Below, piece by piece: positions 209 through 50,907 of a DNA stretch of 64,000 bases. The stretch is from contig JAIXVE010000058.1 of the NCBI GenBank assembly GCA_027483175.1, positions 7,710 to 71,709 on the forward strand, read 5' to 3'. Source of the stretch: Verrucomicrobiaceae bacterium. Lineage in GTDB: Bacteria; Verrucomicrobiota; Verrucomicrobiia; Verrucomicrobiales; V1-33. The translations under genes and the position numbers were made by a program. Each line of letters begins with the position of its first letter. Position 1 is the stretch's first letter. The notes beneath the pieces are model-generated. The model saw only the letters and a program-made list of their open reading frames with translations, did no database searches and was not told where the DNA came from.

Positions 209-1402
209 TCAGCGGCGGACGGGGATCTTGAGTTGTTCGCCGGGGCGGATGACGCTGGAGTCGCTGAGCCCGTTGAGGCGCATGATTTCGCCGGCTGGGA
301 AGCCGTAGCGGCGGGCGACATTGTAGACGGTGTCGCCGCGGACGACGACGTGGGTGCGCTGGCCTGCGGATCTGGCGGGCGTTTCCGCTTTGGGTTTGGT
401 GGCGACGGCGGAGTCGGCGTCGGATTTTTTGGTAGAGGGTTTTGGTGAGGATTTGACGGGAACGGGAGCTTCCTTTGGTTCCGCGGGTTCTGTGCGGACG
501 GATTTTGGTTTGGTGGCCGGGGCGGCCTTGACGACGACGGCGGGTTGTTTCTGGGCGGCCGGTTTCGTGGATGGTTTGGAGGAAGGTTGAGCGGCTGGGG
601 TGACGCGGCGGCCTTTTTCCTGGACCCATGTGTCTGGCTGGCGGGAGGCGACGGCGGTGGGGTCCGGTTCGGCTGGCTGGGCGTGTTCGACTGGCTCGTC
701 CTCCTGAGCGATGGAGTCGGCCGGGTCGGCGGCGGGGTTGGCGGCAGGGGCGGGTGATGGGTCGAAGGGAGCGGTGCGCTGGCTGAGTTTAGCGGCGGGG
801 TCGGCGGTGGAACCGATGACGTGCGGGGCGTCCGGGATGAGGATGCGGGTGCCGGCTTCCCATGAGGCGTCCGGGTTGGCGGCTTCGAGTTGTTCGACGC
901 TGCGTTCGTAGCGGGAGGAGACGAGGAACCGGGTTTCGCCTGGTTGGAGCGTGTGGAAGCTGCCTGGGGTGGAGGCGGCTGGGGCGGCTTCGGGTTCGGA
1001 GACTTCGTCTTCCGGGACGACTTCGGCGCGCGGGATGGGTGGTTCGGCACCTGCGAGGGAGGCGGGGGCACCTTGTCTGGGGAGAGTGGCGAGCTGGGCG
1101 GCGGGTGGCGCGGCGGCGGCGTCCGGGGAGTTAGGGTCGTGGGTGACAGCGCCGGAGTTTTCGCTATCGCGGCCCCACGTATGGAAGGCGAAGAGCCCGC
1201 CGACGGCGACGAGGTGGAGTGCGAGCATGACGACGAAGGCGCGTGACATGCGGATCTGGGGGACCTCGACTTCCCAGTCGTCGGAGGTGCTCATGTGAGC
1301 CGGGAGGCGGTGGGTCCTGCCGAAGCGTTCGGTGATGGCGCCGAAGACGTTTTTGCTGCGGCGGCGGAGAGGCCGGGATTTTTGATCTGGCGGAGTTCTC
1401 AT
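209..1402 (-). CDS. LysM-domain peptidoglycan-binding membrane protein
   Basis: 397-aa ORF with an N-terminal TM helix (AFVVMLALHLVAVGGLFAF) and long Ala/Pro-rich linkers. Two LysM-like segments are present: HTLQPGETRFLVSSRYERSVEQLEAANP...ILIP and HVVVRGDTVYNVARRYGFPAGEIMRLNGL...LKIP. The ATG at 1402 overlaps the murD stop (ATGA). Confidence 0.8.
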   Translation of the reverse strand: MRTPPDQKSRPLRRRSKNVFGAITERFGRTHRLPAHMSTSDDWEVEVPQIRMSRAFVVMLALHLVAVGGLFAFHTWGRDSENSGAVTHDPNSPDAAAAPPAAQLATLPRQGAPASLAGAEPPIPRAEVVPEDEVSEPEAAPAASTPGSFHTLQPGETRFLVSSRYERSVEQLEAANPDASWEAGTRILIPDAPHVIGSTADPAAKLSQRTAPFDPSPAPAANPAADPADSIAQEDEPVEHAQPAEPDPTAVASRQPDTWVQEKGRRVTPAAQPSSKPSTKPAAQKQPAVVVKAAPATKPKSVRTEPAEPKEAPVPVKSSPKPSTKKSDADSAVATKPKAETPARSAGQRTHVVVRGDTVYNVARRYGFPAGEIMRLNGLSDSSVIRPGEQLKIPVRR

Positions 1403-2739
1403 GGTGTGATCAGCTGGTTGACGGATTGGATGAAGGAGTCGCCGCGGTGGTCGTAGCCTGTGAACATGTCGAAGGACGACGTGCCTGGGGCGAAGAGGAC
1501 GGATTGGCCAGGGGAGGCGGCGGCGAGGGCGGCGCGGACGGCGTCGTCGAGGGAGGAGCAGACGGTGCAGGGGACGGCGTGGCCCCAGAGGGCGGCGAGG
1601 CGGGGGCCGATTTCGCCGATGGTGAAGACGGCGGTGGTTTTGGCGGCGATGAGCTGAGTGACGGGGAGATAGTCGAGGCCTTTTTCCTTACCGCCGGCGA
1701 TGAGGACGACCTTATCGTCCATGCCGCGGAGAGCGGATTCCATGGCGTGGACGTTAGTAGCTTTGGAGTCGTTGATGAAGTCGACTCCGTTGACGGAGCC
1801 GGCGGGTTCGCAGCGGTGGCGAGGGGCGGGGATGGACTTGAGGGAGTCGGCCAGGGCGGGGATGGGGATGCCCCATGCGTGGCAGGCGGCCATGGCGGCC
1901 ATGAGGTTTTCGGCGTTGTGGCGGCCGCGGAGCCGTGTGTCGCGCATGGCGAGGACGGGTTGGCCGTGGCGGAGGATGGTGCCGTCGGCGAGGGACCAGT
2001 CGGCGTTCTGGTCCCATGCGGAGAAGGTGATTTTCCGGGCGGGGAAGTCTGGATAGGATTCCGCGGCGTTGACGACGGCGAAGTCTTCCGGGGAGAGGTT
2101 TTCGAAGATGCGAGCTTTGGCGCGGTAGTAGGCGTTGAGGTCCGGGTGGCGGTCGAGGTGATCTTCAGCGAAGTTCATCCAGACGGCGACGTGCGGGTGG
2201 AAGGAGTCGATGAGTTCCAGCTGGAAGGAACTGACTTCGAGGGTGAAGACGTCGAGTGGGGTGTCGGCGAGGACGATGCTGGCGAGGGCGGTGCCGAAGT
2301 TGCCGCAGGGGAGTGTGCGGATGCCGGCGGCGGAGAGAGCGGCGGCGGTGAGGGCGGTGGTGGTGGTTTTTCCGTTAGTGCCGGTGATGGCAATGACGGG
2401 GATGGACGACTGCTGGATGGCGAATTCGATTTCGCTGATGGCCTTGGTGCCGGCGTCGATGACGAGCCTTGCGAGAGGCCATGAGGGGTCGATGGCCGGG
2501 CTGAGGATGGCGAGGTCGAAGCGGGTGGGGCAGGCGAGGGCGGCGGGGCCGGTGAGGGCGTGGATGCCTTCGGAAATGAGGGTGGCGGCGGCGGTGGCGG
2601 CAGCGGGGGAGTTGCCGCTGTCGAGAGCGGTGACATCGGCTCCGAGGCGAGCGGCGAGCCTGGCGGCGGCGAGGCCGCTCTGGCCGAGGCCGAGGACGGC
2701 GACGCGCTGACCGCGGTATTTTCCGGAGGCGGGGATCAC
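1399..2739 (-). CDS. murD: UDP-N-acetylmuramoylalanine--D-glutamate ligase
   Basis: 446 aa. N-terminal Rossmann segment VAVLGLGQSGLAAARLAARLGADV and Mur-ligase P-loop ITGTNGKTTT. Position between mraY and the distal dcw genes. Confidence 0.93.
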   Translation of the reverse strand: MIPASGKYRGQRVAVLGLGQSGLAAARLAARLGADVTALDSGNSPAAATAAATLISEGIHALTGPAALACPTRFDLAILSPAIDPSWPLARLVIDAGTKAISEIEFAIQQSSIPVIAITGTNGKTTTTALTAAALSAAGIRTLPCGNFGTALASIVLADTPLDVFTLEVSSFQLELIDSFHPHVAVWMNFAEDHLDRHPDLNAYYRAKARIFENLSPEDFAVVNAAESYPDFPARKITFSAWDQNADWSLADGTILRHGQPVLAMRDTRLRGRHNAENLMAAMAACHAWGIPIPALADSLKSIPAPRHRCEPAGSVNGVDFINDSKATNVHAMESALRGMDDKVVLIAGGKEKGLDYLPVTQLIAAKTTAVFTIGEIGPRLAALWGHAVPCTVCSSLDDAVRAALAAASPGQSVLFAPGTSSFDMFTGYDHRGDSFIQSVNQLITP

Positions 2740-2749
2740 GGTTAGGGGT

Positions 2750-3901
2750 TCAGCGGAGTTTGAGGGTGGCGAGGCCGATGAGGGCGCACATGAGACTGAG
2801 GACCCAGAAGCGGACGATGACCTGACTTTCCTTCCAGCCTTTGAGTTCGAAGTGGTGGTGGATGGGGGTCATGCGGAAGAGGCGGCGGGGTTCGCCGTAG
2901 AGGCGGCGGGAGATTTTGAACCATGCGACCTGGAGCATGACGGAGAGGGCTTCGGCGACGAAGACGAAGCCGACGATGATGAGGAGGATTTCCTGGCGGC
3001 AGCAGATGGCGACAGCGGCGATGCAGCCGCCGATGGCCATGCTGCCGGTATCGCCCATGAAGACGCGTGCGGGGAAGCAGTTGAACCAGAGGAAGCCGAG
3101 GCAGGCGCCGACGAGGCCCATGCAGACGGGGGCGAGTTCGCCGGCGTTCTGGTTATGGTCGATGAGGAGGAATCTGGCGGCGCCGGCGTGGCCGGTGACG
3201 TAGCAGAAGACGGCGTAGGCGAGGCCGACGGAGACGGTGCAGCCGGCGGCGAGGCCGTCGAGGCCATCGGTTAGGTTGACGGCGTTGGAGCAGCCGACGA
3301 TGACGATGGCGAAGAAGAACGGGGTGAAGTAGCCCATGTGTTCGACTTCGAAGAGTTCCTTCTTGATGAAGGGGAGCTGGAGGTGGTCGAAGTAGTCGCG
3401 CTGGCCTGGGAGTTGCCAGAGCGCGTAGCCTGCGGCGAGGCCGACGACCCATTGGACGACGAGTTTGGTGCGGGCGTTGACGCCTTTGGAGTTTTTCTTG
3501 CTGACCTTGAGGTAATCGTCGGCGTAGCCGAGAGCGCCGAGCCCGAGGGTGACCCCGAGGACGACCCAGAGGAAGGGATTGTCCCAGCGGGAGCAGAGGA
3601 GACTGGCGGCGACGAGGGCGCCGATGATGAGGACACCGCCCATGGTGGGGGTGCCGGCCTTTTTGCCGTGGAGTTCGAAGAGCTTGTGGACTTCTTCGGC
3701 GGTGCGGACGGGCTGACCGATTTTGAGGGAGATGAGTTTGCGGATGACGCGGTCGCCGAGGAGGATGCTGAGGGCGAAGGCGGTGATGCAGGCGGCGAGA
3801 CTGCGGAACGTCTGGTACTGGAAGACGTTAGCGAGTTTGGCGGCGAGGTGTTCCGCGGAGCCGGGAGCGGCCTCCATGAACTGGTAGAAGCGGTAGAGCA
3901 T
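2750..3901 (-). CDS. mraY: phospho-N-acetylmuramoyl-pentapeptide transferase
   Basis: 383-aa polytopic membrane protein with MraY signatures NAVNLTDGLDGLAAG, DTGSMAIGG and PIHHHFEL. Confidence 0.95.
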   Translation of the reverse strand: MLYRFYQFMEAAPGSAEHLAAKLANVFQYQTFRSLAACITAFALSILLGDRVIRKLISLKIGQPVRTAEEVHKLFELHGKKAGTPTMGGVLIIGALVAASLLCSRWDNPFLWVVLGVTLGLGALGYADDYLKVSKKNSKGVNARTKLVVQWVVGLAAGYALWQLPGQRDYFDHLQLPFIKKELFEVEHMGYFTPFFFAIVIVGCSNAVNLTDGLDGLAAGCTVSVGLAYAVFCYVTGHAGAARFLLIDHNQNAGELAPVCMGLVGACLGFLWFNCFPARVFMGDTGSMAIGGCIAAVAICCRQEILLIIVGFVFVAEALSVMLQVAWFKISRRLYGEPRRLFRMTPIHHHFELKGWKESQVIVRFWVLSLMCALIGLATLKLR

Positions 3902-3904
3902 AGG

Positions 3905-5281
3905 TCAGGGCGCGGAGAGGGAGTGGAGGACGCGTTCCATGCCTGCGGAACGGCTGCCTTTGAGGAGGATGAGGTCGTCCGGGGAGGCGGACTGGCGGAG
4001 GAGCGCGGCGCAGGATTCGGCGTCGGGGACGAGGTGGACTTGTGAGGGTGAGCCGCCAGCGGCGAGGAAGCCGTCGGCGATGAGGTGGGCGTCGCCGGAG
4101 TTGACGACGATGAGGAGATTGATGCCTGAGGAGTGGGCGGCGGCACCGGTGCGGCGGTGGCCGTCCGGGGAGTGAGGGCCGAGTTCGCCCATGCGGCCGA
4201 GGACGGCGATGCGACGGCCTTTGGTTTCGAGACCGCGGAGGGTTTCGAGGGCGGCGACCATGGAGTCCGGGTTGGCGTTGTAGGAGTCGTCGAGGAAGGA
4301 GAGGCCGGCGACCGAGCGGAGCTGGACGCGACCGGCGGTTAGGGCGACGTTGGCGAGACCGTCGGCGATGGCTTCGGCTGGGATGCCGTGGGACCAGCCG
4401 GCGGCGGCGGCGAGGGCGGCGTTAGCGGCCATGTGGCGGCCGGGGAGGGCGAGGGAGGCGGGGGTGTGCTGACCGTCCGGGAAGTGGAGGTGGAAGCGTG
4501 AGCCTTCTGGAGAGGCGGTGAGGTTTTCGATGCGGATATCGCCGATGCCGATGCCTGCGGTGAGGATGCGGGCGGAGGTGCGGGAGATGATGAAGGGGGT
4601 GAAGTCGTCCGAGGCGTTGAGGATGACGGTGCCGTCCGGGGCGATGGCGGAGGCGAGGGCGCTTTTTTCGAGGGCGATGCCTTCGCGGGAGCCGAGGTGT
4701 TCGATGTGAGCGGTGCCGATGTTGGTGATGATGGCGGTCTGGGGAGCGGCGATGGCGGCGAGGGGGGCGATTTCGCCGTGATGGTTCATGCCCATTTCGA
4801 CGACAGCGGCGGCGTGTTCCGGGTTGATGGCGAGGAGAGTGAGGGGGACGCCGATGTGGTTATTGAGATTGCCTTTGGTGGCGGCGGTGGGGAACTGGCG
4901 TGAGAGGATGGCGCTGGTGATGTCCTTTGTGGACGTTTTGCCATTGCTGCCGGTCAGGCCGGTGATGCGGCCGGCCCAGACCCGGCGCCATGAGGCGGCG
5001 AGCTGCTGAAGAGCGGCTAGGGAATCGTGGGCGAGGATGACGGGGAAGCCGTCGGGGACGTCGACCGGGCGGGAGGCGAGGATAGCGGCGGCCCCGGCCT
5101 TGACGGCGTCGGCGGCGAGGGTGTGGGCGTCGAAGCGTTCACCGGCGAGGGCGACGAAGAGGGCGCCGGGGGGAAGGGAGCGTGTGTCGGTGGAGACGGA
5201 GGAGACGATCGCGTCGGTGGGGCCCGAGCTGAGCGTTCCGCCGGACCATGCGGCGACTGTGGCGGCGTCGATGGGTTTCAT
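3905..5281 (-). CDS. murF: UDP-N-acetylmuramoyl-tripeptide--D-alanyl-D-alanine ligase
   Basis: 458 aa. P-loop GLTGSNGKTSTKD and the DDSYNANPDSM motif. dcw order is murE-murF-mraY. Confidence 0.92.
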   Translation of the reverse strand: MKPIDAATVAAWSGGTLSSGPTDAIVSSVSTDTRSLPPGALFVALAGERFDAHTLAADAVKAGAAAILASRPVDVPDGFPVILAHDSLAALQQLAASWRRVWAGRITGLTGSNGKTSTKDITSAILSRQFPTAATKGNLNNHIGVPLTLLAINPEHAAAVVEMGMNHHGEIAPLAAIAAPQTAIITNIGTAHIEHLGSREGIALEKSALASAIAPDGTVILNASDDFTPFIISRTSARILTAGIGIGDIRIENLTASPEGSRFHLHFPDGQHTPASLALPGRHMAANAALAAAAGWSHGIPAEAIADGLANVALTAGRVQLRSVAGLSFLDDSYNANPDSMVAALETLRGLETKGRRIAVLGRMGELGPHSPDGHRRTGAAAHSSGINLLIVVNSGDAHLIADGFLAAGGSPSQVHLVPDAESCAALLRQSASPDDLILLKGSRSAGMERVLHSLSAP

Positions 5282-6804
5282 CTGTCGTGGTCGCGCTGGG
5301 ATGGGCGTGAGCGGTCGGGCATGACCCAGTTGCGGAGGATGGATTGAGCGACTTTGACGTCGTCGAAGGGGAGCGTGAAGTTGCCGACGATCTGGCCTTG
5401 TTCGTGGCCTTTGCCGGCGATGAGGACGACATCGCCGCCGCCGGGGCGAGCGCCTGCGAGGTCGATGGCGCGGGCGATGGCGGCCTGGCGGTCCGGGATG
5501 ATTTCGCAGCGGTCGCCGCGCATGCCGGCGCGGATCTCTGCGAGGATGGCTTCGGGGTTTTCGGAGCGCGGGTTATCGCTGGTGAGGATGGTGTAGGTGG
5601 AGAGGGATTCGGCGGCTGCGCCCATGAGCGGGCGTTTGGAGCGGTCGCGGTCGCCGCCGCAGCCGAAGACGGTGATGATGCTGCGGGGTTCGAGTTCCTT
5701 GATGGTGCGGAGGGCGTTTTCGAGGGCGTCTGGGGTGTGCGCGTAGTCGACGTAGACGCGGAAGGGTTTGGCGTCGGCGACGCTCTGCATGCGGCCGGGA
5801 ATTTGGGGGGCGCGGAGGATGCTGGTGATGGCTTCGCGGAGATTGAGGTCCATGGACCATGCGGCGGCGAGAGCGCCGAGGACATTGAAGACGTTGAAGC
5901 GGCCGATGTAGGGAGTGCGGACGAGGAATTCGCGGCCGCGGGCGTGGAGAGTGAACTGGGTGCCCTGGATGGAGACGCGGATGGCGGAGGCGCGGAAGTC
6001 GGCCTGGACGCCCATGCCGAATTTGAGGACGGGGAGACGGCCTTCGAGGGAGCGGGCGAGGCGTTTGCCCCATGGGTCGTCGATATTGATGACGGCGGTG
6101 GGTTTTTTGGGGCCGCCCTGGGAGATGAGGTGTTCGAAGAAGGAGGCTTTGGCCATGAAGTAGTCCTCCATGGTGCCGTGGTAGTCGAGGTGGTCCTGGG
6201 TGAGGTTAGTGAAGATGGCGGAGTCGAAGCGGATCCCGTGGACGCGGGATTGGGAGAGGGCGTGGGAGCTGACTTCCATGGCGACGCCCTTGCAGGCGTT
6301 GGCGCGCATTTCGGAGAGGAGACGCTGGAGGGCGATCCAGTCCGGGGTGGTGTGTGAGGAGGGGAGTTGGCCGAGACCGGTGTCGTATTTGACGGTGCCG
6401 AGGAGCCCGCAGCGGCCGCGGGCCTGAGTGACGAGGTGCTGGAGGATGAAAGCGGTCGTGGTTTTTCCGTTAGTGCCGGTGACGCCGGAGACGAGCATGG
6501 CGTCGGAGGGACGGCCGTAGTAGACGTCGGCGGCTTCGGCGACGGCCTTGCGGCTGTCGGGGACCTGGAGCCATGTATCGCGGTAGAGTTCCGGGACATC
6601 CTGTTCGGCCATGATGGCGGAGGCGCCGGCTTCGCGGGCTTTGGAGATGAAGTCGTGGCCGTCGGCTTTTTCGCCGCGGATGGCGGCGAAGAGCGTGCCT
6701 TCGGCGACCTCGCGGGAGTCGACGGAGATGGCGTTGATTTCGCGGTCGAGAGGACCGAAGGTGCTGACGCGCTGGACGCCTTCGAGGATTTCTTTGAGGT
6801 TCAT
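5278..6804 (-). CDS. murE: UDP-N-acetylmuramoyl-L-alanyl-D-glutamate--2,6-diaminopimelate ligase
   Basis: 508 aa. P-loop VTGTNGKTTT, DYAHTPDALENAL, and a DNPR motif (TSDNPRSENP) typical of meso-DAP-adding MurE. It has 4-nt overlaps with both neighbours. Confidence 0.93.
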   Translation of the reverse strand: MNLKEILEGVQRVSTFGPLDREINAISVDSREVAEGTLFAAIRGEKADGHDFISKAREAGASAIMAEQDVPELYRDTWLQVPDSRKAVAEAADVYYGRPSDAMLVSGVTGTNGKTTTAFILQHLVTQARGRCGLLGTVKYDTGLGQLPSSHTTPDWIALQRLLSEMRANACKGVAMEVSSHALSQSRVHGIRFDSAIFTNLTQDHLDYHGTMEDYFMAKASFFEHLISQGGPKKPTAVINIDDPWGKRLARSLEGRLPVLKFGMGVQADFRASAIRVSIQGTQFTLHARGREFLVRTPYIGRFNVFNVLGALAAAWSMDLNLREAITSILRAPQIPGRMQSVADAKPFRVYVDYAHTPDALENALRTIKELEPRSIITVFGCGGDRDRSKRPLMGAAAESLSTYTILTSDNPRSENPEAILAEIRAGMRGDRCEIIPDRQAAIARAIDLAGARPGGGDVVLIAGKGHEQGQIVGNFTLPFDDVKVAQSILRNWVMPDRSRPSQRDHDR

Positions 6805-8819
6805 CTCGATGTTCGCTTTCCTGACATGTTTTTGGTCCGCGGGGCGGAAGGCCCTTTGGGAGAGGGTGGTGCCGTGGTGGCGATGAACTGAGGGGGTACC
6901 TTGTAGTAGTTCATGGCCTTTTCTGCGATGCGGCGGAAGAGGGGGGCGGCGAGGTGGCCGCCGTAGTTTTCTGCTTCGGCGAGTTTGGGTTCGTCGATGA
7001 TGCAGATGCCAGCGAGGCGCGGGCCGGAGGCGGCGCTGATGTAGCCGAGGAAGGAGACGACGCGGCGGTTTTCGTCGTAGCCTGCGGCGGGGTTTTTTTC
7101 GTTGACCTTTTTGGCGGTGCCGGTTTTGCCGCCGATTTCGAAGAGATCGCTGCGTGCGGATTTGGCGGTGCCTTTTTCGACGACGCCGAGGAGCATGCGG
7201 GAGACGTCCTGGGCGACGTTAGGGGGGATGACGGGGCGGCCTTCCGGCGGGTTGATGGGGGCGGTGACGGTGCCTGAGGAATCGGTCCATGCGTCGGCGA
7301 GGGCGAGCGGGCGCCAGATGCCGTTGTTGAGGATGCAGCCGAGCATGGAGCACATCTGTGCCGGGGAGACCTGGCAGGAGTAGCCGTAGGAGACCCGGGA
7401 CATGGTCTGCTGGTTCCATTTGCCGGCGATGGCGCCTTTGCGTTCGAAGGGGAGGGCGATGCCGGTTTTTTCGCTGAGGCCGAAGGCGGTGTAGTACTCG
7501 CGGAAGCGCTGGAGGCCGACGCGGCGGGCGAGCATGTAGGCACCGATGTTGCTGGACTTGGCGAGGATGCCTGCGGGGGTGAGTTCCGGGTAGGAGCCTT
7601 TATCGTTGATGCGGCGGACCTCTTTATCGGAGTACATTTTGTCGCCGTCGGGGTCGACGGGGATGGGTTGGTCCGGGCGGACCTTGCGATCTGCGAGGGC
7701 GGCGGCGGCGGTGGCGATTTTGATCGTGGAGCCTGGCTCGTAGAGGTAGTCCACGAGGTAGTTCATGGACGAGGGAGCGTCGGAGGCCTTTCTGGTGAAG
7801 TCCCTGCCGACGAGGGCGCGGAGGGCCATGGTGGCTGGTTCGAAGAGGACGACGATGACGGCGTCCGGTTTCATGCGGGCGACGCTGAAGGCGTCCGGGC
7901 CGTCTGGGGAGAGGTTATCGATTTCCTGCTGGACGACCTCCTGGAGACCGGTGTCGATGGTGAGGCGGATGGAGCGGCCTTCGGTGGGCTGGGTGGTGGA
8001 GCCGCGGTAGGCGGCGAGTTCGTCGCCGTGGCCGTCGATTTCGACGGTGCGGGAGCCTGGGGAGCCGGTGAGGTCGGAGTGGAAGGTTTTTTCGATGCCG
8101 GAGACCCCGGTGGGAGGGAGGATGGCGTTCGGGTCCTTGGAGGGAGGGACGGCGAAGCGGCCGACGATGAGGTCGACTGGGGTGGGTGAGGGGTAGGTGC
8201 GTTCGAAGTAGTCTTTGATGACGATGCCACCGATGCGGCGGCGGAGTTCCTGATAGCGGCCGAGTTTAGCGGCTTCGAGTTTCTGCCAGACGAGATTGCC
8301 GATGCCGTAGTCGAGGCGTTTTTCGAGGACGACCTCGCCGGAGCGGCGGATGGCGAAGCGGGAGGAGATTTCCGATTCGATTTCTGCGGCTGGGCGGTGG
8401 AGGATTTCTGCGAGGATGGCGGAGACGCGCTGGAGGTAGCGGGAGCGGAGCTGGTCCGGGCTGAGGAGCTTGAGGAGTTTGGAGGAATCGATGTGTTCCG
8501 AGTCTTCGAGGGCGTAGGCGAGGAGACGGGTTTCGCGGAGGAAGCCGAGGTCGAAGACGAGCTGCTGGACGCTTTCGTCGCGGGCGAGGACGACCCCACG
8601 GGCGTCGGTGATGGTGCCGCGGGGGGCGGGGAGTTCGTCGGTGAAGGAGTGTCTGGCGGCGGCCTGGGCGGCGTATTTGGGGGCGGCGGTGGACTGGAGG
8701 TGGACGAGGCGCCATGAGAGGGCGCCGAAGGTGGTGGTGATGGCGGCGGCTAGGAAGACGGCGCGGTGCCTGAGCGGGGCATCGCTGGGTTCGTCTGGAG
8801 CTGGCCGTTGGGAGGGCAT
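6801..8819 (-). CDS. ftsI: class B penicillin-binding protein / peptidoglycan D,D-transpeptidase FtsI
   Basis: Transpeptidase motifs SxxK (EPGSTIKIATAAA), SxN (KSSNIGA) and KTG (GGKTGTAKK), plus an N-terminal TM helix AVFLAAAITTTFGALSWRLV. The start is set at ATG 8819 (MPSQRPAPDEP). The 80 codons upstream in the track ORF are an Arg/Pro-rich shadow overlapping the ftsL-like gene. Confidence 0.9.
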   Translation of the reverse strand: MPSQRPAPDEPSDAPLRHRAVFLAAAITTTFGALSWRLVHLQSTAAPKYAAQAAARHSFTDELPAPRGTITDARGVVLARDESVQQLVFDLGFLRETRLLAYALEDSEHIDSSKLLKLLSPDQLRSRYLQRVSAILAEILHRPAAEIESEISSRFAIRRSGEVVLEKRLDYGIGNLVWQKLEAAKLGRYQELRRRIGGIVIKDYFERTYPSPTPVDLIVGRFAVPPSKDPNAILPPTGVSGIEKTFHSDLTGSPGSRTVEIDGHGDELAAYRGSTTQPTEGRSIRLTIDTGLQEVVQQEIDNLSPDGPDAFSVARMKPDAVIVVLFEPATMALRALVGRDFTRKASDAPSSMNYLVDYLYEPGSTIKIATAAAALADRKVRPDQPIPVDPDGDKMYSDKEVRRINDKGSYPELTPAGILAKSSNIGAYMLARRVGLQRFREYYTAFGLSEKTGIALPFERKGAIAGKWNQQTMSRVSYGYSCQVSPAQMCSMLGCILNNGIWRPLALADAWTDSSGTVTAPINPPEGRPVIPPNVAQDVSRMLLGVVEKGTAKSARSDLFEIGGKTGTAKKVNEKNPAAGYDENRRVVSFLGYISAASGPRLAGICIIDEPKLAEAENYGGHLAAPLFRRIAEKAMNYYKVPPQFIATTAPPSPKGPSAPRTKNMSGKRTSR

Positions 8820-9163
8820 TAGCGGGTGGGGACGGCGCGTCCGGGGACGGCGGCGGAGAGGACCTTGATTTTGCGAGTGGGAGCGGAGACGAGGTCGAGG
8901 CCGAGGTCGGCGACGCGTTTTTTGAGGGTGGCGTCGTTGGAGTCGGTGTCGCGTTTTTTGCGGAGGGCATCGATTTCCTTGTGGAGGATTTCGATGTCGT
9001 GGGTGGCGGTGGCGATGTCGCGGCCGCGGGAGTTTTTGCGATGGACGACCCATGCCCATGCGAAGCCGATGCTGCCGACGATGAAGCAGGCGGCGATGAC
9101 GTTGAAGGTAACGCCGGCGGGGAGGGGTTGCTGACGGGGTTTGGAGCGAGAGGGCCGAGCCAT
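8819..9163 (-). CDS. FtsL-like small bitopic cell division protein
   Basis: About 114 aa from the internal ATG at 9163 (MARPSRSKPRQQPLPAGV). It has a single TM helix (TFNVIAACFIVGSIGFAWAWVV) followed by a coiled-coil-like segment (IEILHKEIDALRKKRD). It lies between rsmH and ftsI, where ftsL normally sits. Its stop overlaps the ftsI ATG. Confidence 0.55.
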   Translation of the reverse strand: MARPSRSKPRQQPLPAGVTFNVIAACFIVGSIGFAWAWVVHRKNSRGRDIATATHDIEILHKEIDALRKKRDTDSNDATLKKRVADLGLDLVSAPTRKIKVLSAAVPGRAVPTR

Positions 9164-9177
9164 GGGAGTGGGAGGGT

Positions 9178-10194
9178 TCAGGCTGAGGGGAGCCGTTCGG
9201 CGACGCGGAGGCGTGCGCTGCGGGAGCGTGGGTTGGCGGCGAGTTCGGCTGGGGAAGGGGAGATGGCGCGTCGGGAGGGGAGGGAGAGGCAGAGATCGGG
9301 GTTGGGGCGCGGGGCGGGCCACTCCGGGCGATCGGTTTCGGTTTCGCTGAGGTGGCGCATCCAGAGTTTGACGATTCTGTCTTCGAGGGAGTGGAAGGTG
9401 ATGACGGCGATGCGGCCGTAGGGGAGGAGGCAGGGAGGGGCGGCGGCGAGGGCGCGCTGGAGGCAGCCGAGTTCGTCGTTGACGGCGATGCGGAGGGCCT
9501 GGAAGGATTTGACGGCGGGGTGCTGGGCTCCTTTTTTAGGGACTACCGAGGCGATGACGTCGGCGAGTTCGGTGGTGGAGGAGAACGGTTGGGATTCGCG
9601 GTGGCGGACGATGGCGGCGGCGATGCGGCGGGAGGCGTGTTCTTCGCCGAGGCGGTAGAGCGTGTCAGCGATTTCGGATTCGGGCCATGAATTGACGATG
9701 GAGGCGGCGCTGATGGCGTCTGACTGGTCCATGCGCATGTCGAGCGGGCCGTTGAAGCGGATGGAGAAGCCGCGGGAGGCGTCGTCGAACTGGTGGCTGC
9801 TGACGCCGATGTCGAGGAGGATGCCGTGGAGGGGGCCGATGGCTTCGCGCTGAAGGATTTCTGGGAACTGGTCGAAGCGGGCGTGGAAGATGCGGAAGCG
9901 GTCGGGGTAGGCGGCTTGGAGGGGAGCGGCCTGGGCGATGGCGTCGTGGTCGCGGTCGATGGCGATGACGGAAGCACCTGCGGCGAGGAGACGGGAGGAA
10001 TGGCCTCCGCCGCCGAAGGTCCCGTCGAGGATGGTCATGCCGGGGCGTGGGGCGAGGGCGGCGACGACCTCGTCTGGCATGACTGGGAGGTGGTAATTAG
10101 AGGGTCCCTCGGGAGTGGGAGGGATGGTGAGCCCGCGGTTGGGCCGCTCCGTATGAGGGGAGGGAGGCGCTGCGGGATCAGGGGCCGAGGGCAT
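9178..10194 (-). CDS. rsmH: 16S rRNA (cytosine1402-N4)-methyltransferase
   Basis: 338 aa with motifs DGTFGGGGHS, DIGVSSHQFD and FHSLEDR. It is the first gene of the dcw cluster. The true start may lie about 30 codons downstream of 10194. Confidence 0.92.
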   Translation of the reverse strand: MPSAPDPAAPPSPHTERPNRGLTIPPTPEGPSNYHLPVMPDEVVAALAPRPGMTILDGTFGGGGHSSRLLAAGASVIAIDRDHDAIAQAAPLQAAYPDRFRIFHARFDQFPEILQREAIGPLHGILLDIGVSSHQFDDASRGFSIRFNGPLDMRMDQSDAISAASIVNSWPESEIADTLYRLGEEHASRRIAAAIVRHRESQPFSSTTELADVIASVVPKKGAQHPAVKSFQALRIAVNDELGCLQRALAAAPPCLLPYGRIAVITFHSLEDRIVKLWMRHLSETETDRPEWPAPRPNPDLCLSLPSRRAISPSPAELAANPRSRSARLRVAERLPSA

Positions 10195-12595: not shown

Positions 12596-13297
12596 ATGAA
12601 AACGCAGATATTGACCGGAACTTGCCTACTGGCGGTGATCGCGGCGATTTACGTATTCAGCCGCGAGGAGAGGCCTAAGCCAAATGTGACCGAACCTGGT
12701 GTGGCTAAACAAGTCGGACCTTCAGGACCTGCCGAGAAAGAGCCTGACATTTTCGCAATAGCCAAGGCTGAGGCTAATCTGCCCGCTGATTACGTTCTCA
12801 CGCCGGAGCAGAAGGAAAAGATCATGAGTCGGCGGGAGGAGATCCTGAGAAAACAGCGAGCGAAGGAAATGTATCCTACTGAAGATGAGTTGAAGATAAT
12901 GCTAAAGACTCCGGTAGAGTTCTACGGACGAGTGTTGGACCAATTTGATCAGCCTGTCGTGGGTGCTGACATACGTTGCTCGTGGCCTTTCATCGGTCCG
13001 CAGGAATCCCCCGTTAATGTTTTATCATCCGCTCCCCATGGTGACTTCGAAATACGGAACATCAAGGCGGCGGCTCTTCGCATCTCCGTCTACCCTCCAG
13101 CCGGATATGCAGAGGAAGTGCGGGACTCTAAGAGAGTACAAATCGCGAAAGCGCCTGATCGGCTGCTGAACATTTTTGACTTAAAGAATGCAACACCCGA
13201 GCAGCTTGAAAATCTGCCGCAATTTTTTTTTGGCGGAGCTGAAAGCTACAAGGGTGACAAGGCAAAGCCCGTGATCTTTCGGCTGAAGAAGCTCTGA
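12596..13297 (+). CDS. hypothetical membrane-anchored protein (possible carboxypeptidase-regulatory-like beta domain)
   Basis: 233-aa ORF with an N-terminal anchor (LTGTCLLAVIAAIYVF). GC is clearly lower than in neighbouring genes and the local G>C asymmetry is absent. No recognisable catalytic motif. Confidence 0.55.
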   Translation: MKTQILTGTCLLAVIAAIYVFSREERPKPNVTEPGVAKQVGPSGPAEKEPDIFAIAKAEANLPADYVLTPEQKEKIMSRREEILRKQRAKEMYPTEDELKIMLKTPVEFYGRVLDQFDQPVVGADIRCSWPFIGPQESPVNVLSSAPHGDFEIRNIKAAALRISVYPPAGYAEEVRDSKRVQIAKAPDRLLNIFDLKNATPEQLENLPQFFFGGAESYKGDKAKPVIFRLKKL

Positions 13298-13796
13298 GGG
13301 AGCAACACCGCGAGTCTCCCGCCAGTCGCGATTCGACGCATCATCCTGCCCCGCCGGTGACACTGAGCCTGGCATTTTGCGGATGGGCGTTGGGTGGATA
13401 GAAGTCGGTGGCTTTGATTACGAGCACGCTGCGCTGGCTGTCATGAAAGGCGCGGGCATCATGCGTGCGGCGAAGTTCCGGAAGTGGGCGCACAAGTTCG
13501 GTTGCCGCTTCATGATTAATGGGGTCAATCTGGTGGACTGAAAGGCCGGACCATGACAAAGGAGGCGCGATGAAAAGCAAACCTGACTACGACTTCTTCG
13601 AAAAATCGTTGTGTAATGTTAGAAAATTGAGGGGTATCATTACGATGTCCTGCTGGGATCGGAGGAAATCAGAAATGATGCATCCGGTTCTCCTGCGGCA
13701 AGAATCGTACAGGGAGCGGATGAATTTGGAAACTGCATTTTCGAGGCAACTAGTTATGCTGCAATACCCGGGCATGGGCTGAGTCGACTGCAGGAA

Positions 13797-14204
13797 TTGG
13801 TGCGCCATCCGCTGCCTCCTGATTTCATCGCATTTTTCGAAAAATACGAAAAAGCGCTCGCCGTCACCTTGACCTATCCCTTGTATTTCTGGCCTGAGGA
13901 CAAAATCATCGAAGAAATCAACGAGCGAAGGGAATTTCTGGACCGCCCCATGCGTACCTTCCGCTTTGGTGAACAGTATGAAAGGGAAGCGACGCAGTAT
14001 GGGCTTTGGCTTGAGGCGCCGGGGACCATGGAGTGGCGGGTGATTAGCATGGATCGCGGGGTAATCGATGAGGATGATGACCCGTATGTGGAGCCTGATC
14101 GCATTGTTGGCGCCTCCTTTTTCGAATGGTTCAAGGAGTGGATGGAGTCAGACGGAGCATCCGATCCTTTTTCGAACGGGAATTTCTTCCAGGCCGTGCC
14201 ATGA
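13797..14204 (+). CDS. SUKH/SMI1-KNR4-like protein, possibly 5-prime truncated
   Basis: 135 aa from a TTG start. LPPDFIAFFEKYE near the N-terminus and FFEWFKEWMES near the C-terminus resemble SMI1/KNR4 (SUKH) immunity-type domains. The same frame stays open upstream to 13623 (..GLSRLQELV) with no canonical start, which suggests 5-prime decay. Confidence 0.4.
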   Translation: MVRHPLPPDFIAFFEKYEKALAVTLTYPLYFWPEDKIIEEINERREFLDRPMRTFRFGEQYEREATQYGLWLEAPGTMEWRVISMDRGVIDEDDDPYVEPDRIVGASFFEWFKEWMESDGASDPFSNGNFFQAVP

Positions 14205-14425
14205 TGGCAATCGCGGGTCGTGGCTGACTGGTTGTCCTTGAACAATCTGGCGGGAGGTGGTGCCGGTGGCAGGGAGGGAATAGATTGTGGCGGAAAGTGG
14301 TTTTTGAAATGTGAGGGTGGTGTTGGGGACGCAACCCCGTTGGGATTGGGGGGCGACGGGATGGGGCGGGGCAAGGGCGGGAACGGAGAGTGGTGTTTTG
14401 ACGCGAAGGGGGGAGGGGGAAGGGG

Positions 14426-14840
14426 GATTTGAGAGGGCTTGTGGGGAGAGGCGCGAGTACGGAGCCTCGCGTGCCCGGGCTTGTACGGAGAGGGCGGGTA
14501 GGCGTGCTCCGCACGCAGAGAGAGCTGTGATTCTCCCAGCAGTCCAGAGCCTGCGGCTGGCTGGTACGGGGGGGGCGTGTGAGAAGGCGCGAGTACGGAG
14601 CCTCGCGTGCCCGGTGCTTGTTGGGAGGGGCTTGTGGGGAGGGGCTTGAATGGTGCCGGGCCAGCGGGCTGGCTCCGGGAAAGCGGCAGCAGGCTTCCGC
14701 AGTCCAAGGGCCATCGGCCAGCTTGTTCGAAGGGGCGGACCCCTACGGGGTCCTGTGGTATTGTGTTGGGTACCGGGGGTACCGCGAGTGGCTCGCGGCA
14801 CCCCCGGCTAGTCACCGGTCGTCCCTACGGGACGGGGGCT
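14426..14840 (+). repeat. GC-rich mosaic intergenic repeat block (hairpin modules) preceded by a single GATTTGA unit
   Basis: GATTTGA lies at 14426-14432. Hairpins are CGCGAG-N8-CTCGCG at 14452-14471 and 14588-14607, and GCGTGC-TCC-GCACGC at 14502-14516. The GAGAGCTGTGATTCTCCCAGCAGTCCAGAGCCTGCGGC module runs to 14564. Further hairpins are GGACCCC-TAC-GGGGTCC (14737-14753), the nested CCGGGGGT..CGCGAG-TGG-CTCGCG..ACCCCCGG (14773-14807) and CGTCCC-TAC-GGGACG (14820-14834). Related copies lie at 37.3-38.1, 49.6-49.8 and 50.8-50.9 kb. Confidence 0.85.
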
Positions 14841-14972
14841 TGGTCGGAGAAGGGGCTCAAGCGGAGGCGCGGAGGCAGGCTAGTTGGGAGTGGATAGTTA
14901 CGTGGAAGCGGTGAGTGCTGCCGATGGCGGTGGTGCGTGTGAGATGAGAACGATAGAGAAACCAAGCAGACC

Positions 14973-15329
14973 ATGGAGATAGCAGTCGTCATTTTTCTGG
15001 GTGTCACTTTTGCGATCGTGAGCCGTGTCATCGCGGGCTCGTTTGATGGGGACCGTGTCGAGCAATACATTCGCGACATGGGATGCGAGTTGCTGGACAA
15101 GAGTTGGGATCCGTTTGGTCCTGGGTGGTTTGGCGAGAAGGATGCGAGGATCTATCAGGTTGTGTATCGGGACCGTGAGGGGCGGGTGCATCGGGCGCAC
15201 GTGAAGACGTCGATGATGAGTGGGGTGTATCTGACGAACGACGAGATTGTGGAAGACCGGCCCAAGCGAAGTGTGGAGGAGGAGAAGGCCGAGTTGCGGC
15301 GGCGTCTGGCCGAGCTTGAAAAGGAGTGA
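14973..15329 (+). CDS. hypothetical small membrane-anchored protein
   Basis: 118 aa with an N-terminal TM helix (IAVVIFLGVTFAIVSRVIAG), a soluble domain and a charged coiled-coil tail (EEEKAELRRRLAELEKE). No family recognised. Confidence 0.45.
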   Translation: MEIAVVIFLGVTFAIVSRVIAGSFDGDRVEQYIRDMGCELLDKSWDPFGPGWFGEKDARIYQVVYRDREGRVHRAHVKTSMMSGVYLTNDEIVEDRPKRSVEEEKAELRRRLAELEKE

Positions 15330-33511: not shown

Positions 33512-33525
33512 AATTTGAGATTTGA
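33498..33525 (+). repeat. heptamer array (GATTTGA GATTTGA AATTTGA GATTTGA)
   Basis: Four tandem 7-mers read directly from the sequence. TGA triplets at 33502, 33509, 33516 and 33523 fall in all three frames. The array contains the recO stop codon. Confidence 0.95.
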
Positions 33526-33741
33526 GAGGGGACAGGCAGGCGCACACTGGGCGCAGAGAAAGCTGTGATCTGACCTGAGACGAGAGCACGCCGGCGGGTT
33601 TTGGAGGGGGGCATTTTTTGGGTAGGTGTGCAGGCAGGGTTTTTGGGATTTGGGGGCGACGGGTTTGGGGTTGGGTGGTATCTGATGGGGACTGATTGGA
33701 TTGGGGATATGTGTGACCGAGCCAAAGGAATTAGTGAGGGG

Positions 33742-36237: not shown

Positions 36238-36261
36238 GAAGTGAGAAGTGAGAAGTTAGAA
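36234..36261 (+). repeat. heptamer array (GTGAGAA x3 + GTTAGAA)
   Basis: Four tandem 7-mers. TGA at 36235, 36242 and 36249 plus TAG at 36257 cover all three frames. The array contains the stop codon (36235-36237) of the upstream gene. A degenerate second copy (GAAGTGGGAAGTGAGAT) lies near 36284-36300. Confidence 0.95.
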
Positions 36262-37262: not shown

Positions 37263-37275
37263 GGGGGTGGGGGAA

Positions 37276-37296
37276 GTGAGAAGTGAGAAGTGAGAA
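37276..37296 (+). repeat. heptamer array (GTGAGAA x3)
   Basis: Three perfect tandem 7-mers starting 14 nt after the stop codon at 37260-37262. Confidence 0.95.
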
Positions 37297-37500
37297 TGGC
37301 GTGTGGGGAGAGGCGCGAGTTCGGATGTGGGGCGTGGTGTTTCCCGCGGCGATGCCCCGGGAGAGGGTAGGGCGCCCTTTCAGGGCTTGGTGTGTGGTGG
37401 GTGAGACCCCGGGCGCTGCCCTGGGCTGCGTTAGGGCGCGCCGTTGGCGCTGGGGTGCCGGGCTTGGACGGAGAGAGGGCGCGAAGGGTGGTGGGGGCGA
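37297..37500 (+). repeat. GC-rich intergenic repeat module (truncated A-type head plus a second hairpin-rich module)
   Basis: It begins GGCGTGTGGGGAGAGGCGCGAGT, the same head as the copies at 14441, 37801 and 50785, and then diverges. Small triloop hairpins are GCCCT-TTC-AGGGC and GCGCC-GTT-GGCGC. Confidence 0.7.
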
Positions 37501-37550: not shown

Positions 37551-38060
37551 GCGTTTGGGGAGAGCGCGAGTACAGAGTCTCGCGTGCCCGGGCTTGTTGG
37601 GAGGGCTGGCAGGCGCACTCCGTGTGTGGAGGGAGTGCGATTCCAGCGGCAGGCCAGGGCCTGCGGTTGCTGGTTTGGAGAGGGGCCGGCATCCCTCCGG
37701 GATGCGATGTTATTTGGTGTGTTTTCCGGTGGTCATCGCTCGTGGCCTCGCTCGACCACCGGCTACAAGCCGGCATCCCTACGGGATGCGAGGGGAGTGG
37801 GGCGTGTTGGGAGAGGCGCGAGTACATAGCCTCGCGTGCCCGGGCTTGTTGGGAGGGCTGGCAGGCGCACTTCGTTAGCGGAGGGAGTTGCGATTCCAAC
37901 GGCAGGCCAGGGCCTGCGGCTGCTGGCTCGGAGGGGGGCTTGAACGGAGAGGGGCCGGCACCCCTCCAGGGTGCGATGTTATTGGTTTGTTATCCGGTGG
38001 TCATCGCTCGTGGCCTCGCTCGACCATCTACAAGCCGACATCCCTCCGGGATGCGAACGG
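37551..38060 (+). repeat. tandem duplication of a ~250-bp composite hairpin-rich repeat unit
   Basis: Unit 1 spans 37551-37800 and unit 2 spans 37801-38060, and they align along their length. Unit 1 hairpins are CGCGAG-N8-CTCGCG (37565-37584), CGCACTCC-N10-GGAGTGCG (37614-37639), GCATCCC-TCC-GGGATGC (37689-37705), CCGGTGGTC-N19-GACCACCGG (37726-37762) and GCATCCC-TAC-GGGATGC (37773-37789). Confidence 0.9.
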
Positions 38061-49596: not shown

Positions 49597-49765
49597 AATT
49601 TGGGACGGTGAGGTGGGCGTGTGGGAGCGGCTTGTTGGGAGGGGTGGGGCTGATGCGGAGGCGCGAAGGATGGCTAGTGGGGAGGGGCGGGCCGCGCGCA
49701 CTCTGTGCGCTCCGAGAGCTGTGATTCTCCAAGCAGGGCAGAGCCTGCGGCGGGCTTGTTCGGAG
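49597..49765 (+). repeat. GC-rich intergenic repeat module (copy E)
   Basis: It contains GCGCAC-TCT-GTGCGC (49696-49710), followed by GAGAGCTGTGATTCTCCAAGCAGGGCAGAGCCTGCGGCGGGC. It aligns with 14517-14564 and 50859-50905. Confidence 0.85.
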
Positions 49766-50770: not shown

Positions 50771-50907
50771 GGAAGGTGGGCTTGATCGGAGAGGCGCGAG
50801 TACGGAGCCTCGCGTGCCCGGGATTGAACGGAGAGTGGGCCGCGCGCACTCCGTGCGCCCTGAGAGCTGTGATTCTCCCAGCAGTCCAGAGCCTGCGGCG
50901 CGCTGGG
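50771..50907 (+). repeat. GC-rich intergenic repeat module (copy F)
   Basis: About 120 nt aligns with 14441-14564. Elements are CGCGAG-N8-CTCGCG (50795-50814), GCGCAC-TCC-GTGCGC (50844-50858) and GAGAGCTGTGATTCTCCCAGCAGTCCAGAGCCTGCGGC. Confidence 0.9.

Follow-up and report, generated by a model that had tools for sequence, protein, structure and literature searches.

The repeats analysed here, in a 64-kb stretch of DNA (the window), are a real family of small hairpin repeats of the REP/BIME type, linked to a RAYT (REP-associated tyrosine transposase). What most distinguishes this family is an absolute strand lock, which the earlier note on this DNA had missed: every copy lies on the G-rich strand. 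It is a known kind of element in an unusual organisation, in which the REP-RAYT association has been kept, the inverted doublets have been dropped and orientation is 100% in accord with the skew. The region is probably a BIME-like cluster of ssDNA-hairpin REP modules, belonging to an intergenic family of a freshwater Verrucomicrobiaceae clade, with module A cognate to a RAYT that is encoded elsewhere in the genome and bracketed by A arrays (a REPtron).

Module A, whose unit boundaries were defined from 96 distinct copies, has a conserved core of 28-35 nt containing a hairpin with a 6-bp stem (CGCGAG/CTCGCG) and an 8-nt loop, and its consensus is GCGAG-TRCGGAGC-CTCGC plus GTCCCGG. The 28-nt core GCGCGAGTACGGAGCCTCGCGTGCCCGG is found exactly at 14451, 14587 and 50794 and with two mismatches each at 37564 and 37816, all on the + strand. 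These five occurrences, against an expectation of 0 from 100 dinucleotide shuffles, confirm the repeats that had been reported from inspection of the window. Copy 1 (14445..14479) is composed of the REP hairpin CGCGAG-TACGGAGC-CTCGCG plus TGCCCGGG and has a G-rich linker L on both sides (GCTTGTGGGGAG and GCTTGTACGGAGAGGG). The other copies are located at 14585..14614 (copy 2), 37564..37592 (copy 3), 37810..37844 (copy 4) and 50788..50822 (copy 5), and a truncated fragment consisting of the left arm alone is present at 37307..37325, again on the + strand.

B, C, D and the triloop E/F types are further hairpin modules, and the G-rich linker L of about 15 nt joins them into BIME-like mosaics; all those described below lie on the + strand. 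Between the first two A copies is a module B (14497..14559) with the B1 hairpin GCGTGC-TCC-GCACGC of a minor subfamily, a B2 hairpin region and the B3/B4 tail GCAGTCCAGAGCCTGCGGC. Copy 2 is followed by tandem linker L units at 14616..14648 (GCTTGTGGGGAGGG, 2.4 times), by module C (14653..14718), whose 3' tail GCAGTCCAAGGGCC.TCGGC is related to the module B tail, and by module F, of the E/F type (14733..14838), which comprises GGACCCC-TAC-GGGGTCC, a central hairpin and CGTCCC-TAC-GGGACG. A decayed fragment of the 5' half of module B lies at 33535..33569, directly 3' of a GATTTGA heptamer array. The next cluster contains the hairpin module G (37407..37451), a diverged B, termed B' (37606..37672), with a re-formed 8-bp hairpin CGCACTCC-N10-GGAGTGCG and the tail GCAGGC-CAGG-GCCTGC, and module E (37686..37795), again of the E/F type, with GCATCCC-TCC-GGGATGC, the central hairpin CCGGTGGTC...GACCACCGG and GCATCCC-TAC-GGGATGC; a second B' (37858..37925) and a second, more decayed E (37950..38060) lie 3' of copy 4. 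A solo module B with B1 = GCGCAC-TCT-GTGCGC occupies 49696..49751, and another B (50844..50899) lies 3' of copy 5. The variants of the central hairpin at 14502-16, 49696-710 and 37614-39, the triloop hairpins of the form CCC-T(A/C)C-GGG (starting at 14737, 14819, 37689 and 37773) and the nested hairpin at 14773-14807, which is the central hairpin of module F and has 8+7 bp, are all as the earlier note had described them or nearly so.

Tandem A-B arrays repeat regularly every 138 nt or so, and the spacings between the two modules are about 52 and 86 nt. Modules A-D contain 31% C with a GC skew of 0.11, as against about 20% C and a skew of 0.28-0.39 elsewhere, which bears out the contrast with C-depleted spacers noticed before. 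In this lineage the depleted strand is C-rich nowhere but in the hairpin modules. Only the E/F module folds better as DNA than shuffled sequence (z = -3.41 for module F). The 131-nt A-B unit does no better than its shuffles (z = -0.29 for the + strand and -1.32 for the - strand), and the idea that it is thermodynamically exceptional was rejected.

The family is dispersed over 27 loci in three Verrucomicrobia MAGs and over 66 metagenome loci. At least three species are represented, and the separate intergenic clusters, spread over different contigs, number about 100. Confident gene calls are overlapped by 6 of 100 clusters, and the remaining 94 lie outside them. The fetched loci hold 140 matches to A and 123 to B, a sample biased by the use of the A pattern for fetching. 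The MAGs that host the family are of freshwater Verrucomicrobia and the metagenome contigs come from lakes. Matches in unskewed metagenome sequences of very high GC were set aside as mostly chance matches in coding DNA; three loci from other organisms (L052, L058 and L084) carry genuine copies of the same REP class.

The RAYT has module A as its cognate REP. The earlier note had offered a REP/BIME-like reading as one of two, had seen no transposase gene in the window and had proposed a genome search for RAYT genes. A tblastn search finds no RAYT in the window, whose lack of Y1_Tnp rests on this same search, and a RAYT with module A on both sides was found outside it, in the MAG closest to the window (L094) and in metagenome contigs (L077, L044 and L036); the link to the window's own family is thus drawn from relatives that are 93-97% identical. 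The gene at L077:3212-3817 passes the cutoff of 80 bits for the NCBIfam model NF047646 (REP-associated tyrosine transposase), scoring 91.7, and that of 23 bits for Pfam Y1_Tnp, scoring 26.8. Its score against the IS200 model is 21.1 bits where the cutoff is 55, which makes it a RAYT equivalog and not an IS200 transposase. Its only relative in the PDB is TnpA-REP (4ER8), and in the alignment of the two the HUH motif PNHVHAL pairs with PEHMHCI and the tyrosine motif YIHNNPVK with YIYINPVK. Judged from these matches, the RAYT is a homologue of E. coli TnpA-REP and belongs to the Y1 HUH tyrosine transposases. Exact-protein look-ups of a protein of the window and of the best RAYT match (P0001) returned no record.

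Two A copies lie upstream and three downstream of the intact L077 gene. In the closest MAG (JAIXPK010000483) five A copies lie upstream of the RAYT and at least five downstream; this gene is frameshifted near codon 135 and is either a pseudogene or an assembly error. The L044 gene is partial, and all of its 179 codons present are identical to those of L077. The more distant L036 gene (59.6% identical) is bracketed by the same hairpin as module A, and the same hairpin, as GCGAGTRCGGAGCCTCGCG(G/T)TCCCRG, is present at the loci of homologues from unskewed hosts (L095-L098; 58-70% identity). Altogether, the RAYT is flanked by its own REP in L077, L044, L094, L036, L097 and L098, and in L098, from an unskewed host, inverted pairs of the A-type hairpin surround the gene. 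Such adjacency is seen for module A only and not for B, C, D or E/F. The 5' foot of the hairpin reads GTGG in most RAYT-proximal A copies and otherwise GAGG, GGAG or GAGA, with GTAG in a single L036 copy; the classic GTAG tag does not appear to be conserved.

The GC skew of this lineage is extreme (about +0.4), roughly ten times the usual size, and literature searches on extreme GC skew in Verrucomicrobia and on the V1-33 MAG returned nothing relevant. Across 500 kb of skewed sequence (76 sequences), the ratio of module copies on the G-rich strand to those on the C-rich strand is 295:0. The first set had already given 119 of 119 matches on this strand, and at loci with strong local skew 279 copies are concordant and none is discordant. 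Counted by pattern match, the ratios are 125:1 for A, 111:0 for B1, 111:0 for B3, 25:0 for D and 22:0 for the triloop hairpins, the sole A exception being a chance match within coding DNA. The linker L motif, which mostly adjoins modules, has 299 occurrences on the G-rich strand and none on the C-rich strand. With none of the 295 copies in the opposite orientation, there are neither inverted REPIN doublets nor an alternating BIME orientation among them.

The strand lock is independent of the direction of neighbouring genes. When the flanking genes are marked as + for the G-rich strand, the clusters fall into contexts (+,+) 9, (+,-) 7, (-,+) 2 and (-,-) 7, and genes on the C-rich strand that flank the elements are confirmed by Pfam. 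The RAYT genes themselves are on the G-rich strand in three of three skewed loci. Strand-biased mutational decay of inverted copies was considered as the origin of the lock and rejected: the hairpin cores are nearly G/C-balanced and should therefore decay alike in both orientations. The G-rich strand is presumably the leading strand, by the general rule, the T>A skew and a gene-strand bias of 60:40; the encoding of the window's dcw cell-division cluster on the C-rich strand counts against this.

A strand-locked pattern is the expected trace of a mechanism that works on one exposed strand at the replication fork. We suggest that the RAYT would bind the A hairpin on ssDNA in its top-strand form only, would cut and rejoin close by, with the conserved CT in the adjoining linker GCTTGT as the probable site, and would be coupled to the lagging-strand template, so that each new copy is always placed in one and the same direction with respect to the moving fork. 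Every copy would then lie on the G-rich strand because the orientation of insertion is fixed relative to the fork. After insertion, the arrays may be reshaped as related modules recombine or slip against each other, for instance at the shared B/C tails and the linkers, which would give rise to the mosaic and to module-level differences between close relatives. The modules would in this way be mobilised by the RAYT, and B, C, D and E/F presumably use the same or a similar enzyme. How REPs spread is still called poorly understood (PMC8266576); in-vivo evidence is scarce, and the present family offers a natural test bed. A stronger and decidedly speculative version is that REP/RAYT in this clade may be strictly replication-polar, with single direct modules in place of inverted REPINs as the propagating unit, present only on the lagging-strand template, and with their paired Cs escaping C loss. 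If true, this would be natural in-vivo evidence for REP spread coupled to the replication fork. The modules might, in addition, have been co-opted for structural roles in strand marking or at the fork.

The absolute polarity shared by several unrelated module types and the linker L would also fit polar DNA signals that the host selects on one replication strand (KOPS/Chi-like signals or lagging-strand-template hairpins), with the RAYT serving only as a maintenance tool, and so would the resistance of the modules to the strong C loss of the lineage on the G-rich strand, visible in their skew of 0.11 against 0.36-0.39. We regard this as improbable. The copy number and order of modules vary between relatives 93-97% identical, which suits selfish turnover better than fixed signals, and the polar signals already known are 8-mers spread through genes and not intergenic modules of 30-110 nt. 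Moreover, the polarity is already predicted from the strand specificity of Y1 enzymes (PMC3971601, PMC8266576).

Conserved pairing of the hairpins raises the possibility that the modules are structured RNA elements, either a small RNA family, as the earlier note had entertained, or mRNA hairpins acting in cis to stabilise or end transcripts, and are conserved for RNA structure. The B1 hairpin is 99% paired, and a double-compensatory switch of two adjacent base pairs together (C-G/A-T to T-A/G-C) is present, without intermediates, in 17 of the 92 distinct B copies. The central hairpin of E/F also shows compensatory differences among copies. The earlier description of swapped arms was loosely worded, as it is two adjacent base pairs that change together. 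The number of base pairs changed on both sides is no higher than in shuffles (3, against 2.7). The covariation is real but thin: one linked event common to a subfamily. The A hairpin is sequence-invariant and not covarying across distant RAYT loci, where it is physically tied to the gene of a DNA enzyme; in our collection the A stem is invariant because the search pattern required it.

Most clusters lie downstream of genes and few separate divergent ones (2 of 25 fully assigned clusters), as would suit an mRNA element. However, such an element would follow its gene, and the orientation of the modules ignores gene direction, with 7 (-,-) against 9 (+,+) clusters and no copy on the C-rich strand, which counts against the RNA reading. 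Neither T-tract terminators (one weak site with a GC hairpin and T-run in 13700-15100, where 1.2 are expected) nor sigma-70-like promoters exceed chance, so that readings of the elements as terminators or promoters were both rejected; the fold of the A-B unit is likewise no better than shuffles, and a tRNA scan gave no tRNA. In Rfam, A-D and E/F have no match, whether at the gathering score over the whole window or at E <= 1 in both repeat regions. The neighbouring module G alone resembles a known RNA family: it matches the full model of RF01687 (Acido-Lenti-1) with 39.1 bits in L015 (1790-1834) and, below the gathering threshold of 37, with 27.3 bits in the window (37407-37451). The location of this match within strand-locked REP-like mosaics suggests that RF01687 may be a DNA repeat and not an RNA gene. 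An RNA function is not supported for the modules, and we consider it very unlikely.

The arrays differ between orthologous sites. Relatives that are 93-97% identical in flanking DNA differ by whole modules, in copy number and in order, and one orthologous site carries different module strings in the window, L018, L060 and L085. The window and L019 are identical over 480 nt up to a break inside the second B' module, and breakpoints between relatives fall inside modules and at shared tails. Among the orthologous sites compared, all differing by whole modules, no clean pair of empty and filled sites was found, so that transposition is not separable there from recombination or duplication. Passive copying of an old repeat through local duplication, slippage and homologous recombination, with no dedicated mobilising enzyme now active, would agree with these breakpoints, with the tandem A-B arrays and with the frameshifted RAYT of the closest MAG. 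It is also very unlikely, given the roughly 100 separate clusters on different contigs of at least three species, the intact L077 RAYT inside an A array, the far lower skew of the modules than of the DNA around them, which points to youth or constraint, and the fact that recombination alone does not forbid inverted copies.

The reading of the family as REP modules mobilised by a RAYT finds a close parallel in the REP/BIME elements and TnpA-REP (4ER8) of E. coli, which share with it a short imperfect palindrome in high copy number at intergenic positions, REP-type mosaics joined by linker motifs and, in the REPtron, a single Y1 HUH transposase gene, encoding a homologous protein, bracketed by its own REPs. 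TnpA-REP acts on ssDNA, neither binds nor cleaves the inverse REP and makes its cuts at a CT on the 5' and on the 3' side of the hairpin (PMC8266576). However, E. coli BIMEs alternate the orientation of their REPs (Y/Z inverted pairs), whereas 0 of 295 copies are inverted here, and in place of the GTAG tag there is a variable GTGG, GGAG or GAGA. Unlike in E. coli, the module A loop has 8 nt and is conserved in sequence, and the arrays include several extra module types (B, C, D, E/F and G). Within the Verrucomicrobia, REP families are already known from the GTAG REPs of Opitutus terrae, often found after coding regions (Di Nocera et al. 2013, PMC3733652); the present family appears to differ in having no conserved GTAG or CGTC tag, and that survey reported no strand polarity and made no mention of leading or lagging strands (PMC3733652).

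The REPINs and GI-GIII arrays of Pseudomonas fluorescens SBW25 are also RAYT-associated REP families. Ordered tandem arrays of two REP types, with spacings of 112 and 72 bp, have been described there (Bertels & Rainey 2011, PMC3116915), forward near 2 Mbp and reverse near 4 Mbp (PMC3116915), and they resemble our A-B arrays with their spacings of about 52 and 86 nt. In SBW25, however, 93% of doublets are inverted, this form is the main unit and singlets are seen as decayed remnants, whereas only direct singlets and arrays occur here. Finally, the IS200/IS605 elements (IS608, ISDra2) and their non-autonomous hairpin derivatives share with our family a Y1 HUH enzyme whose chemistry on ssDNA is strand-specific and hairpins in direct orientation, on one strand and on both sides of the transposase gene. 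Unlike IS200/IS605, the enzyme here is a RAYT equivalog, apparently single-copy beside a high-copy hairpin; defined left and right ends and a fixed target tetranucleotide are not demonstrable at the sites compared, and the A unit has a similar L motif on either side. Copies of IS200 and IS200/IS605 tend to be oriented with the advancing fork, via use of the lagging-strand template (PMC3971601, PMC6006769), and a genome-wide orientation bias is common to these elements and to the modules described here, whose G-rich strand would correspond to the leading strand.

The repeats that an earlier note had described from sequence alone, at 14426-14840 and at other sites of the window, read as it had described them. 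Module A has a 28-nt core (GCGCGAGTACGGAGCCTCGCGTGCCCGG) which is present in five copies, all five on the + strand, where shuffled sequences predict none. Module B is located at 14497-14559, 49696-49751 and 50844-50899; two more copies, near 37606 and 37858, are diverged (B'), and at 33535 a decayed fragment of B is left. Module C is at 14653-14718. Both the triloop hairpins and the nested one (14773-14807) are parts of an element of about 105 nt, named E/F (14733-14838, 37686-37795 and 37950-38060), which carries a similar triloop hairpin (NNNCCC-TNC-GGGNNN) at each end, 82-84 nt apart, and a long central hairpin between them. The E/F element folds better than shuffled sequence (z = -3.41); the A-B unit as a whole folds no better than its shuffles. 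As the note had claimed, the modules are rich in C relative to their surroundings (31% C and a GC skew of 0.11 versus about 20% C and a skew of 0.28-0.39).

The modules are connected by L, a linker that is rich in G and about 15 nt long (GCTTGTTGGGAGRGG and variants). The motif GC[TG][TG]G[TG]N[CGT]GGAG is present at 14616-14648 and throughout the intergenic regions, with 299 matches on the G-rich strand and none on the C-rich strand, and 390 of the 499 matches to a looser pattern lie within 120 nt of modules. The linker is also found solo, immediately 3' of heptamer arrays; a target, a cleavage site or a separate repeat are its candidate roles. Every unit of these tandem heptamers (GAAGTGA, GATTTGA, AAATAGT) contains a stop codon, which places stops in all three frames. 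They are located in the window at 33498-33527, 36232-36261, 37273-37296, 43138-43205, 49582-49599, 50908-50938 and 52155-52200. Five arrays overlap or adjoin the stop codon of a + strand gene, and none of the seven minus-strand genes checked in the window has an array 3' of it. In related loci heptamers are often situated directly 5' of the REP arrays; all of those seen are on the G-rich strand. Module G (37407-37451, and 1790-1834 of the collected locus L015) is a full-model match to the Acido-Lenti-1 RNA of Rfam (RF01687); the copy in L015, at 39.1 bits, passes the gathering score of 37, and the copy in the window, at 27.3 bits, stays below it. Since module G is part of REP-like arrays that are strand-locked, one may ask if the RF01687 motif is a DNA repeat.

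When one genome per species was scanned, the A core came up at 27 loci, distributed over three MAGs of Verrucomicrobia (JAIXPK01, Verrucomicrobiaceae C1_MAG_00061; QQNF01, V1-33; CANHUG01, RE-27jun17-61), and a metagenome scan added 66 further loci, for the most part from lake samples. JAIXPK01 contigs and some lake contigs match the window at 93-97% identity, so the window derives from a close relative of the JAIXPK01 MAG. The modules form mosaic strings, with AB (n = 19), A alone (n = 18), B alone (n = 9) and BA (n = 8), and the longest arrays read ABABABABAB; combinations with C and D also occur. Neighbouring modules have a median spacing of about 52 nt in the order A-B and of about 86 nt in the order B-A.

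Comparison of relatives reveals turnover of these strings. At the site of the finding the window reads A-B-A-C-F, and three related loci read A-B-A-C-heptamers-D (L018), A-B-(left arm of A only)-C-heptamers-D (L060) and A-B-F-B-A' (L085), so that all four differ. Across the 37.4-37.9 kb cluster the window is identical to another locus (L019) over 480 nt; the two sequences part within the second B module, and L019 has about 460 nt of modules beyond those of the window. Breakpoints are located inside modules or at the tails of B and C, which are related to each other. Recombination or slippage between modules, in addition to any transposition, is consistent with this pattern. When the reverse complement of L060 is compared with window 14575-14650, just GGCGCGAG, the left arm of A, is left at the orthologous site, fused to a linker. 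The gap of about 43 nt in this single case starts exactly at the A loop and may be a deletion or an excision footprint.

No gene for a REP-associated tyrosine transposase (RAYT) was found in the window, in agreement with the earlier note. A metagenome contig (L077; GC 0.64, skew +0.40) encodes a 201-aa ORF at 3212-3817 which scores 91.7 bits against the NCBIfam REP-associated tyrosine transposase equivalog (cutoff 80) and also exceeds the Pfam Y1_Tnp cutoff. E. coli TnpA-REP (4ER8) is the one relative with a solved structure, and the HUH and Tyr motifs of the two proteins align. Two A copies are present upstream of this gene and three downstream, on the same strand as the gene. The same RAYT is present in the MAG closest to the window (L094, JAIXPK010000483.1, 1394-2000), with five A copies upstream and at least five downstream. 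A frameshift near codon 135 breaks this copy in two, either as a pseudogene or through an assembly error; the intact L077 protein is 84.5% and 92.9% identical to its two pieces. A 59.6%-identical RAYT from a lower-GC organism (L036) has the same hairpin on both sides. Homologues of 58-70% identity come from unskewed hosts, one of them a Kiritimatiellae MAG, and have GCGAGTRCGGAGCCTCGCG(G/T)TCCCRG beside the gene. The A-type hairpins around homologous RAYTs form inverted pairs in one locus (L098) and are all direct in another (L097). The copies flanking the RAYT and the same hairpin at homologous RAYTs therefore identify A as the cognate REP of a widespread RAYT clade, and A is conserved in sequence, beyond structure alone.

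In two loci A-type hairpins lie beside other gene systems. In L095 (Ga0558126_08300) a RAYT homologue of 67% identity and its hairpins are located inside a type I restriction-modification operon, between the N6_Mtase/Eco57I and Methylase_S genes. In L052 (Ga0172380_10219885), from an unskewed organism, a 64-nt tandem unit with an A-type hairpin and the motif GGGAACGCGGGGCTCTGCACCCGC flanks a small two-gene cassette, a putative hicA/hicB toxin-antitoxin pair as read by eye from the translation.

The earlier note had proposed either a REP/BIME-like mosaic or a structured ncRNA family, and had pointed to compensatory stem changes. Covariation was analysed in 92 distinct copies of B, which had played no part in collecting the loci; the stem of A was fixed by the search pattern and so is invariant. 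Pairing is kept in 99% of cells in hairpin B1, in 89% in B2, which has two alternative imperfect forms, and in 77% in the B3 register. In 17 of the 92 copies two adjacent pairs of B1 change jointly from C-G/A-T to T-A/G-C, with no intermediates. This switch is a genuine double-compensatory difference between two subfamilies coexisting in each genome, and it is one linked event. Pairs changed on both sides in B number 3, against 2.7 in shuffles, which is no excess. The central hairpin of E/F has compensatory differences between types (CCGGTGGTC/GACCACCGG, CCGGGGGT/ACCCCCGG and CCCCGGGT/ACCCGGGG). Thus, pairing is kept and maintenance of the hairpins is supported, whereas statistically independent covariation lacks support. 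Of the earlier proposal, the REP/BIME half is supported by a RAYT bracketed by A, while the ncRNA half is unsupported; readings of the modules as RNA, as terminators or as passive duplications are weaker than the REP/RAYT reading.

The GC skew is extreme in every related contig (absolute values of 0.3-0.46) and in the whole window. Along window 1-64000, (G-C)/(G+C) is +0.3 to +0.5, with T>A on the same strand. The usual G excess is about 2.5% according to SkewDB (PMC8941118), and by this comparison the skew of the lineage is roughly tenfold the usual. With each contig oriented to its G-rich strand, 181 genes lie on that strand and 122 on the C-rich strand, and the skew over them is alike (0.39 and 0.36). 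Module copies lie on the G-rich strand in 119 of 119 cases in the first set, in a ratio of 279:0 where local skew is strong, and of 295:0 across 76 skewed sequences totalling 500 kb. By pattern, G-rich versus C-rich strand counts are 125 and 1 for the A loop, 111 and 0 for B1 and likewise for B3, 25 and 0 for D, and 22 and 0 for the E/F triloop hairpin. The lone C-strand match lies in coding DNA and is due to chance. Several genes next to modules lie on the C-rich strand and are confirmed by Pfam, namely ABC_tran and UPF0261 (L004), FdhD (L009), DUF4407 (L001, L023) and CotH (L002), and clusters are situated between two G-strand genes (9), two C-strand genes (7), convergent genes (7) or divergent genes (2). 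Since modules keep to the G-rich strand between genes of either direction, their orientation follows the strand asymmetry of the chromosome and not transcription. Near-zero-skew patches (window 13001-14000; L003 2500-5500, L020 1500-5500 and L025 1-5000, on the G-rich-strand orientation) are probably recently acquired DNA which is yet to take on the host skew; the window patch has a lower GC (0.52), and its ORFs at 12596-13297 and 13797-14204 have no Pfam hits.

Strand-specific, fork-coupled RAYT activity would explain the shared orientation of the modules. TnpA-REP works on single-stranded REPs, neither binding nor cutting the inverse REP, and a tetranucleotide at the hairpin foot guides its cuts, which fall at CT dinucleotides on the 5' and 3' sides of the hairpin (PMC8266576). 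The orientation of IS200-family elements is biased to fork advance because the lagging-strand template is used (PMC3971601; PMC6006769). The A unit is conserved as L-hairpin-L, with the CT in GCTTGT kept on each side, and in skewed loci the RAYT genes are on the G-rich strand; together with the placement of all copies on that strand, these features fit fork-coupled RAYT activity. From the general rule, the T>A skew and the 60:40 gene bias, we infer that the G-rich strand is the leading strand. Seven consecutive genes (window 209-10194, - strand) lie on the C-rich strand, including a LysM-domain gene at 209-1402. Window-wide Pfam matches include three Mur ligases and MraW, which, if assigned to these ORFs as we infer, suggests a dcw cell-wall/division cluster; if the G-rich strand is leading, such a cluster would be oriented head-on to replication.

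The family has four defining traits of known REP/RAYT systems: the repeat is a short palindrome, it lies outside genes in high copy number, its copies bracket a RAYT, and the enzyme belongs to the RAYT clade. However, the inverted REPIN/BIME organisation of known systems is absent, and the GTAG tag is not conserved. REPs are already known in Verrucomicrobia, from Opitutus terrae (PMC3733652), and P. fluorescens SBW25 has direct two-type tandem arrays oriented by replichore (PMC3116915). The type of element is thus ordinary, but the absolute replication-strand polarity of a REP family in a high-skew lineage is unusual, and it makes the mode of REP spread testable.
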